Positions 3,503 to 3,772 of a stretch of DNA of 64,000 bases are shown here, one piece after another (the first letter of the stretch is position 1; each line of letters starts with the position of its first letter). The notes under the pieces are model-generated. The model searched no databases. It worked only from the letters and a program-made list of their open reading frames with translations, and had not been told where the DNA came from. The position numbers and the translations under genes are program-made. Origin of the DNA: Bacillota bacterium (GTDB taxonomy: Bacteria; Bacillota; Limnochordia; DTU087); NCBI GenBank assembly GCA_012798695.1, contig JAAZMR010000079.1:9733-73732 (forward strand), written 5' to 3'.

Positions 3503-3772
3503 ATGAATGAACTACTATTGGCAAAAGCAATCGTTTTGGGATTATCTGCTTTAGGTGCAGGTGTAGCCATGATTGCCGGGTTGGGACCTGGGATCGGACA
3601 AGGTTATGCCGCTGGCAAGGGTTGTGAAGCGGTAGGCCGCCAGCCGGAAGCTGCGGGCAGGATTACCCAGACCATGTTGGTTGGTCAAGCTGTAGCAGAA
3701 ACCACCGGTATCTACTCCTTGATTATTGCTCTACTATTGCTCTTTGCTAACCCCTTGATCCGGTTGCTGTAG
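3503..3772 (+). CDS. atpE: F0 ATP synthase subunit c; Na+-binding-type signature
   Basis: [12 protein letters not shown] ... RQPE ... [13 protein letters not shown]. Near-identical in pattern to the Ilyobacter tartaricus c subunit. Confidence 0.9.

Follow-up and report, generated by a model that had tools for sequence, protein, structure and literature searches.

The atp operon and the ion-binding site of its c subunit

The window, a 64-kb stretch of contig JAAZMR010000079.1 from a Bacillota metagenome-assembled genome (MAG), contains an operon for an F1Fo ATP synthase, and the c subunit encoded by its atpE gene (positions 3503–3772, plus strand) is the subject of this analysis. The genes of the operon follow the order atpZ-I-B-E-F-H-A-G-D-C, and all eight structural genes (a, c, b, delta, alpha, gamma, beta, and epsilon) are present. 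The atpE gene opens with ATG at 3503, closes with TAG at 3770–3772, and encodes 89 amino acids (aa), which score 71 bits against the Fo c-subunit model TIGR01260 (ATP_synt_c; cutoff 44). A Shine-Dalgarno-like run, GAGGAGG, lies 9 nt upstream of the ATG, and a single base separates the ATG from the atpB stop codon, which ends at 3501. The program-made list of open reading frames (ORFs) starts the gene at TTG 3464, giving a protein of 102 aa; the 89-aa form is the deposited one (NMB46427.1, "MAG: ATP synthase F0 subunit C [Firmicutes bacterium]") and has the length found in homologues. It is in the 89-aa form that Q33, E66, T67, T68, and Y71 stand at those positions, and the numbering given for them in the initial annotation is right.

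The identical c protein is encoded on at least seven independent contigs, whose sample labels include biogas-fermenter metagenomes (exact-protein look-up). A cysteine, Cys41, is found in the cytoplasmic loop of the protein (GKGCEAV; codon 3623–3625). The close lineage relatives examined (P0005–P0015) read GKGAEAV here, and position 41 is Ala, Thr, or Val across the wider homologues viewed. Because the Cys-containing protein recurs on seven independent contigs, Cys41 is real and the c sequence no assembly artifact.

The c subunit was searched with phmmer against all PDB chains. The best matches were four c chains from Acetobacterium woodii, Fusobacterium nucleatum, and Ilyobacter tartaricus, with E values of 1e-31 to 1e-54, and the next after these Na+ rings were the H+ rings of chloroplasts and cyanobacteria at 1e-17. 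The alignments to all three crystallized Na+ rings run without gaps. Identity amounts to 59 of 87 residues (68%) for the I. tartaricus chain (1yce; E 1e-33), 61 of 85 (72%) for F. nucleatum (3zk1; E 1e-34), and 55 of 74 (74%) for A. woodii c2/c3 (4bem_A; E 3e-31). The near-colinearity with the I. tartaricus protein that had been proposed initially is borne out by the first of these alignments, and in all three the residues correspond one to one at the ion-site positions. Relative to I. tartaricus numbering the offset is +1, with Q33, V64, A65, E66, T67, T68, and Y71 falling on Q32, V63, A64, E65, S66, T67, and Y70, respectively.

In I. tartaricus numbering, the direct ligands of Na+ are Glu65, Gln32 (Glu32 in F. 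nucleatum), the Oγ atom of Ser66, and the carbonyl of Val63; the fifth ligand is a water molecule held by Thr67 and the carbonyl of Ala64, and both Tyr70 and Ser66 form hydrogen bonds with Glu65 (PMC2359735; PMC3692424). In the window protein, the helix-1 residue Gln33 aligns with Q32 of 1yce, Q29 of 4bem_A, and E32 of 3zk1, and the carboxylate of Glu66 with that of E65 and of A. woodii E62. Thr67 corresponds to Ser66 in 1yce and 3zk1 and to Thr63 in A. woodii c2/c3, and this replacement of Ser66 by Thr is the single substitution in the ligand set relative to I. tartaricus. The backbone context V64-A65 is identical to V63-A64, and the helix-2 motif AETTGIY matches A. woodii c2/c3 exactly. Judged by these alignments, the full one-carboxylate Na+ signature is present, comprising Q33, V64 (through its backbone), E66, T67, T68, and Y71. 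The two-carboxylate type of ring found in F. nucleatum is marked by Glu at position 32, and the corresponding residue of the window protein, at position 33, is Gln. The published Na+ motif consists of Gln (or Glu), Glu, and Ser/Thr (PMC7793690; for the Ser/Thr position also PMC2359735), with Thr67 and Tyr70 completing the definition (PMC2359735; PMC3692424; PMC7793690). The A. woodii enzyme is strictly Na+-dependent (PMC7793690), and in Clostridium aceticum a "Q....ET" motif was missed by genome annotators; noticing it led to the demonstration of a Na+-stimulated ATPase (PMC7911925).

The resemblance to the Na+ rings is not due to chance. The H+-type Bacillota c subunits fetched for comparison, those of Bacillaceae included, are only 32%–43% identical to the window protein and read D/N-L-E-A-x-I/F at the six site positions. 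The initial statement that H+-type Bacillus c subunits lack both the Gln and the Ser/Thr pair is therefore confirmed on the Bacillota proteins compared. The H+ ring of spinach keeps the Gln and the Tyr but has Ala-Leu where the window protein has Thr-Thr, so the hydroxyl pair is the discriminating element. All close lineage relatives (P0004–P0015, 88%–100% identity) keep the signature, as do nearly all of the 120 best homologues, in the form of GQG or GEG together with AE[ST]TGIY; altogether, 4,396 database proteins match the c subunit at E ≤ 1e-10.

The wider family also includes fused c subunits. The top-scoring database matches (P0001–P0003) are two-hairpin proteins of ∼150 aa. The second hairpin of P0002 and P0003 reads AVAQTTGIY, with Gln replacing the carboxylate as it does in A. 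woodii c1, and P0001 looks like a partial tandem duplication of an F. nucleatum-type c. In many operons from sediment and hypersaline metagenomes (among loci L087–L166), a long fused c gene of two to six hairpins (∼160–487 aa) stands right after atpB; examples are L133, L134, L138, L140, L142–L145 (324 aa), L128 (405 aa), and L146 (487 aa). Some of the fused hairpins carry Gln for the carboxylate, and the fused gene is then followed by a normal c of 81–85 aa with the two-carboxylate signature E-V-E-S-T-Y. Two further loci, L173 and L174, encode a three-hairpin c of 266 aa. From their predicted proteins, the fused-c operons look like a much extended version of the hybrid rotor of A. woodii, with its c1 and c2/c3 subunits.

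Operon architecture and the a and epsilon subunits

By gene content and order, the operon is a canonical bacterial F1Fo, and the NCBIfam equivalog models for c, b, delta, alpha, gamma, beta, and epsilon all scored above cutoff. All genes lie on the plus strand. At the head of the operon is atpZ (2108–2362), which encodes a small membrane protein (ATPase_gene1; PF09527, E 1.4e-8) and is also called on independent contigs. It is followed by atpI (2458–2814), for ATP synthase protein I (PF03899, E 3.6e-9), to which a 118-aa call on contigs L004 and L170 maps; in other systems the atpI product is a c-ring assembly factor. The Fo a subunit is encoded by atpB (2824–3501; 225 aa), with a Pfam match to PF00119 and strong but sub-cutoff matches to subunit-A models (E 8e-66), and the b subunit by atpF (3831–4322; 163 aa; TIGR01144, 94 bits against a cutoff of 65.5). 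The F1 genes are atpH for delta (4312–4857; 181 aa; TIGR01145, 107 bits against a cutoff of 57.5; PF00213 OSCP), atpA for alpha (4854–6368; 504 aa; TIGR00962, 827 bits, with the alternate-F1Fo alpha model below cutoff), atpG for gamma (6371–7204; 277 aa; TIGR01146, 278 bits), and atpD for beta (7218–8606; 462 aa; TIGR01039, 832 bits), the product of which is identical to NMB46432.1. The last gene, atpC (8606–8896), encodes an epsilon subunit of 96 aa. The best promoter-like site (10/12, extended −10) was located at 1895–1923, upstream of atpZ; as a whole, the promoter and terminator scan of the operon gave no more hits than expected from shuffled sequence.

The laterally transferred Na+ F-type ATPases known as N-ATPases have the architecture atpD-C-Q-R-B-E-F-A-G and lack delta. 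This arrangement was considered for the window and ruled out, since the delta gene atpH is present and the gene order is canonical. The N-ATPase models (TIGR03306, 03322, 03321, 03324, 03323, 03305, and 03166) were all below cutoff on the window operon, which contains neither atpQ nor atpR. Between atpB and atpF lies a single c gene, of 89 aa, and the operon has none of the fused, multi-hairpin kind known from A. woodii.

In the a subunit, Arg164 (R210 in Escherichia coli), Asn168 (N214), and Gln203 (Q252) are conserved. Met173 takes the place of E. coli Glu219 and Asp196 that of His245, the latter within the motif His192-x-Tyr-Phe-Asp196. The E. coli numbers derive from a sequence that was checked for internal consistency at R210, N214, E219, H245, and Q252 only. 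An a-subunit scan with one genome per GTDB species gave 80 loci, from each of which the adjoining c gene was extracted. The four closest a subunits were the only ones paired with a c subunit bearing the complete Na+ signature. They belong to the Bacillota MAG AS23ysBPME_266 (L007; 88% identity), Sinanaerobacter (L008; 49%), an Anaerovoracaceae MAG (L009; 48%), and Fuchsiella alkaliacetigena (L010; 41%). At ≤40% identity, every a subunit of the scan had a partner c that lacked part of the motif and was mostly of the H+ type.

A second, independently selected set was drawn from a metagenome scan with the c subunit, which provided ∼50 more a subunits beside Na+-motif c genes. Against a profile of Na+-partnered a subunits, from which the close relative L007 was excluded, the window a subunit scored 235 bits, a margin of +62 bits over its score (173 bits) with the profile built from 57 H+-partnered Bacillota a subunits. 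Leave-one-out classification assigned 24 of 24 a subunits correctly. Five positions are class-specific in the comparison, given here with the window and E. coli residues. At M173/E219, all 57 H+-partnered proteins have Glu, and the residue is never acidic in the 51 Na+-partnered ones; at S160/S206, Thr in 57 of 57 stands against Ser in 51 of 51. The H+-partnered group is equally uniform at S153/L195 (Glu in 57 of 57; Na+-partnered: Gly in 43, Ser in 5, Glu in 2), at H192/W241 (Trp in 57 of 57; no Trp in the Na+-partnered class, where the top three residues are Asn in 27, Tyr in 8, and Ser in 5), and at D196/H245 (Ser in 57 of 57; Na+-partnered: Gly in 36, Asp in 9, Ser in 3).

S160, H192, Y194, F195, and D196 are found in 117 of the 117 nearest a-subunit homologues, none of which has Glu at position 173. 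The segments PH-x-YFDLF and RLFGN-x-x-GG-(non-acidic) are common to the window protein, these 117 homologues, L174 (an A. woodii-like operon), and L176, an operon whose c subunit is ∼85% identical to that of I. tartaricus. In a PDB search with the a subunit, 13 chains were matched, none of them recognizable by molecule name as a Na+ F-type enzyme; source organisms were not listed. Taken as a whole, the a subunit provides evidence that the entire Fo belongs to a Na+-type subfamily; this is evidence of subfamily and no proof of ion specificity. Within the operons viewed, H-x-Y-F-D is invariant in those of the Gln32 type, and most two-carboxylate sediment operons have Gly at the position of the Asp.

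The epsilon subunit consists of the N-terminal β sandwich only, and the C-terminal helical domain that inhibits hydrolysis (two helices, ∼45–50 aa) is absent. It scores above cutoff with TIGR01216 over model positions 2–90 of 130 and aligns to residues 1–85 of PDB epsilon chains that are 133–139 aa long. The length of 96 aa is kept in six cluster members, and the next gene, of the Fur family, starts at 8950, 54 nt downstream of atpC. Complete epsilon genes in the comparison loci encode 132–149 aa, except those of L007, from the same lineage, L087 (93 aa), and L088 (87 aa). Both L087 and L088 carry Na+-motif c subunits. In Bacillus PS3 and E. coli, the C-terminal helices of epsilon block rotation in the hydrolysis direction (PMC6377231), and the truncated form encoded here hints at Na+ pumping.

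Source and gene neighborhood

The MAG to which the window belongs is labeled "Firmicutes/Bacillota bacterium" and comes from anaerobic digesters. Its nearest GTDB representative, AS23ysBPME_266, is listed as "Firmicutes sp." with an assignment at the phylum level only in the source study (PMC7038595 supplement), and a literature search for AS23ysBPME_266 found no paper naming it. An Rfam scan of the 64-kb window gave no rRNA, tRNA, or other match. The lifestyle had been put forward initially as that of an anaerobe or an alkaliphile. The first fits the source, all exact matches deriving from anaerobic-digester metagenomes; the second is without support.

All ORFs of appreciable size in the window were scanned with Pfam, as were ∼19 kb of extra flank obtained from other contigs by exact-protein look-ups, ∼83 kb in total. 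Genes for sugar use elsewhere in the window encode glycoside hydrolases GH42, GH4, and GH127, ROK and FGGY kinases, an aldose epimerase, and a sugar ABC transporter, and those for glucose-6-phosphate dehydrogenase and 6-phosphogluconate dehydrogenase are also found. Regulation, transport, repair, and sporulation are represented by Zur, ZnuABC, AddAB, and the spore-cortex hydrolase SleB. The predicted gene content of the window is the profile of a saccharolytic, spore-forming fermenter.

Directly after atpC and on the same strand, positions 8950–11923 (plus strand) hold the Fur-family (Zur-like) regulator and three genes resembling those of a zinc ABC transporter (ZnuA, ZnuC, and ZnuB); the Znu-like identities were read from ORF translations, the Pfam check covering the Fur-family regulator only. 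Two genes of the URO-D family are located at 23003–24064 and 32972–34012 (both plus strand), with no heme-pathway neighbors among the ORFs scanned. URO-D paralogues in anaerobes are often corrinoid methyltransferase-like. A gene for the flavin transferase ApbE (55697–56806, plus strand) adjoins one at 54511–55548 (plus strand) that encodes a 345-aa secreted protein built of two similar halves and without a Pfam match. The ApbE gene was considered as evidence for an Rnf or Nqr complex and rejected as such, since the flavinylation motif, searched as the regular expression D[AGS]x[ST]GA[ST], had no match in the window.

Coupling ion, mechanism, and physiological role

Taken together, the enzyme is very probably a Na+-coupled F1Fo under physiological conditions, carrying Na+ rather than H+. 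The initial proposal of a likely Na+-translocating F1Fo finds its support in the alignments to three Na+ rings, the published motif, and the grouping of the a subunit. Where Na+ is millimolar and the pH neutral to slightly alkaline, Na+ would be expected to be the ion that couples the enzyme physiologically. Millimolar Na+ and a pH of 7 or above are typical digester conditions.

By homology with the rings of I. tartaricus and A. woodii, each c/c interface of the rotor ring would hold one Na+, ligated fivefold by Glu66 through its carboxylate, Gln33 through its side-chain oxygen, Thr67 of the neighboring subunit through its hydroxyl, Val64 through its backbone carbonyl, and a water molecule. 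The water would be positioned by Thr68 and the carbonyl of Ala65, and Glu66 would be locked by hydrogen bonds from Tyr71 and Thr67. Arg164 of the a subunit is predicted to displace Na+ from each site that rotates into the a/c interface; the freed ion would leave via one half-channel of the a subunit while the next site loads from the other. In one direction the sodium-motive force would turn the ring to make ATP, and in the other ATP hydrolysis would drive Na+ export. In helix 1, the glycine motif G-x-G-P-G-x-G-Q-G is shared with c11 rings, from which a ring of ∼11 subunits and a transport ratio of ∼3.7 Na+ per ATP may reasonably be guessed.

Several points weigh against coupling to Na+. An intrinsic selectivity for H+ is common to all c-rings studied, and whether Na+ is the coupling ion is set by the Na+/H+ ratio of the environment (PMC7594442; PMC3692424). 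Na+ coupling therefore needs millimolar Na+ at near-neutral or alkaline pH, and at low Na+ or low pH H+ would be carried. No Rnf or Nqr complex was detected in the ∼83 kb around the operon, nor was an oxaloacetate, methylmalonyl, or glutaconyl decarboxylase, an Mrp or Nha antiporter, or a second, V-type ATPase. The region thus shows neither a primary Na+ pump nor a Na+-dependent consumer, and the wider initial idea of a sodium-based bioenergetic lifestyle draws no support from it. The F1 alpha and beta subunits are 58%–69% and 67%–76% identical, respectively, to those of the comparison operons and do not separate Na+-type from H+-type enzymes. In five loci with Christensenellaceae-like operons, Gln32 is missing from the c subunit, in three of them together with the position-66 hydroxyl, yet the a subunit is likewise without Glu219. 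The class defined by H-x-Y-F-D and the loss of Glu219 is not exclusive to operons with a full-motif c, and the a-subunit residues were for this reason rejected as proof of ion specificity; they appear to track the subfamily in part rather than the ion type. According to a review, no ion specificity has been traced to the a subunit (PMC7594442).

The main rival reading has the enzyme coupled to H+, or to both ions when Na+ is low. A promiscuous enzyme that carries both ions physiologically, like the A1Ao of Methanosarcina acetivorans, and whose bioenergetics neither ion would define by itself, would have precedents, since Na+ enzymes translocate H+ when Na+ is absent (PMC2359735), the C. aceticum ATPase is substantially active at 10 μM Na+ and only ∼2-fold stimulated (PMC7911925), and a promiscuous archaeal enzyme is on record (PMC7594442). 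It seems unlikely for the window, however, as a fully polar site of the I. tartaricus/A. woodii type behaves as Na+-coupled at millimolar Na+ (PMC3692424; PMC7793690; PMC7594442). An enzyme that is physiologically H+-coupled, with the polar site binding a proton or hydronium and the motif inherited without Na+ function, is quite unlikely. The intrinsic selectivity of c-rings for H+ would favor it, as would the retention of part of the ligands in some H+ rings, such as Gln and Tyr in spinach (also PMC2359735), and the fact that no partner for a Na+ cycle was found around the operon. Against it stand the complete ligand set, with the Thr-Thr pair that is missing from H+ rings, and the strict conservation of the motif throughout the lineage and its wider family. 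The Na+ concentration and pH of digesters also speak against H+ coupling. Enzymes with the same motif proved Na+-dependent when tested in the cited literature (PMC3692424; PMC7793690; PMC7911925). A special class of Na+ ATPase, either an N-ATPase or an A. woodii-type F/V hybrid rotor with a duplicated c1, is highly improbable: the c and a subunits give sub-threshold matches to alternate-F1Fo models, and fused-c, A. woodii-like operons are common among the relatives of the window c, but those models score far below their cutoffs in an operon with canonical order, a delta gene, no atpQ or atpR, and one c gene.

With Na+ as the preferred coupling ion, the direction of operation can be considered. 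The enzyme could equally serve as the ATP-driven Na+ export pump of a fermenter, and the balance tips slightly toward its often running in this mode. Because epsilon is without the hydrolysis-inhibiting domain and the gene neighborhood is saccharolytic, we lean toward a reversible enzyme whose main work, while sugars are fermented, would be to pump Na+ at the expense of ATP. A Na+ F1Fo of this kind is said to have been described in Clostridium paradoxum, an anaerobic fermentative Firmicute, by Ferguson et al. and Meier et al. in 2006, who reportedly proposed an ATP-driven Na+ pump. By analogy, such a pump is the physiological role held most likely for the window enzyme. C. paradoxum is an alkalithermophile and is likened to the window by role only, the window being without sign of alkaliphily or thermophily. 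A bolder proposal combines two claims: that this deep-branching lineage of digester Bacillota constitutively uses an unbraked Na+ F1Fo as an export pump, and that the a subunit with H-x-Y-F-D and no Glu219 is a functional adaptation of the half-channels to Na+. The combination is doubtful; if the a-subunit adaptation were true, it would contradict the prevailing view that this subunit contributes nothing to ion choice.

Among the characterized systems, the c11 rings of I. tartaricus and Propionigenium modestum (1yce, 2wgm) share with the window protein the single hairpin of 89 aa, the one-carboxylate site, and the helix-1 sequence GxGPGxGQG, as well as the Gln, Val, Ala, Glu, Thr, and Tyr at positions 32, 63, 64, 65, 67, and 70. 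The window enzyme differs from that of I. tartaricus in having Thr for Ser66 and a truncated epsilon, and its host is a digester member of the Bacillota rather than a decarboxylase-driven member of the Fusobacteria. The a subunit is also shorter, with 225 aa compared with 268 aa in L176, the operon with an I. tartaricus-like c. A. woodii c2/c3 (4bem_A) is the most similar in sequence (74% identity), with the same Q...ETT...Y ligands, and the a subunit of the A. woodii-like operon L174 resembles that of the window in RLFGN-x-LGG and PH-x-YFDLF. In contrast to the window, the hybrid ring of A. woodii includes an additional c1 subunit of two hairpins, one of whose sites is lost; the window operon has no gene for such a subunit, and no Rnf or Wood-Ljungdahl genes were seen in the window region. 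The F. nucleatum c11 ring (3zk1) is alike in Val63, Glu65, Thr67, and Tyr70 but has in Glu32 a constitutively protonated second carboxylate, where the window protein has Gln, and Ser66 in place of Thr. N-ATPases (PMC2881411) likewise have a c subunit with the Na+ ligand set and differ in operon architecture and subunit set.

The window enzyme is a known type, a one-carboxylate Q...E-T-T...Y ring, in a new uncultured lineage, and it involves no new mechanism. Knowledge of Na+ F-type ATP synthases dates back to the 1980s–90s. Prediction of Na+ coupling from the motif has been standard since at least 2008 (PMC2359735). The assignment has value for annotation in that public records give the gene generic names or call it H+-transporting; JGI, for instance, lists close relatives of the c subunit as "F-type H+-transporting ATPase subunit c". 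For the biology of the organism, it suggests that an uncharacterized Bacillota lineage recurrent in biogas reactors keeps a membrane Na+ circuit. Such a circuit would bear on the tolerance of salt and of ammonia at high pH, and on calculations of energy yield in digester food webs.

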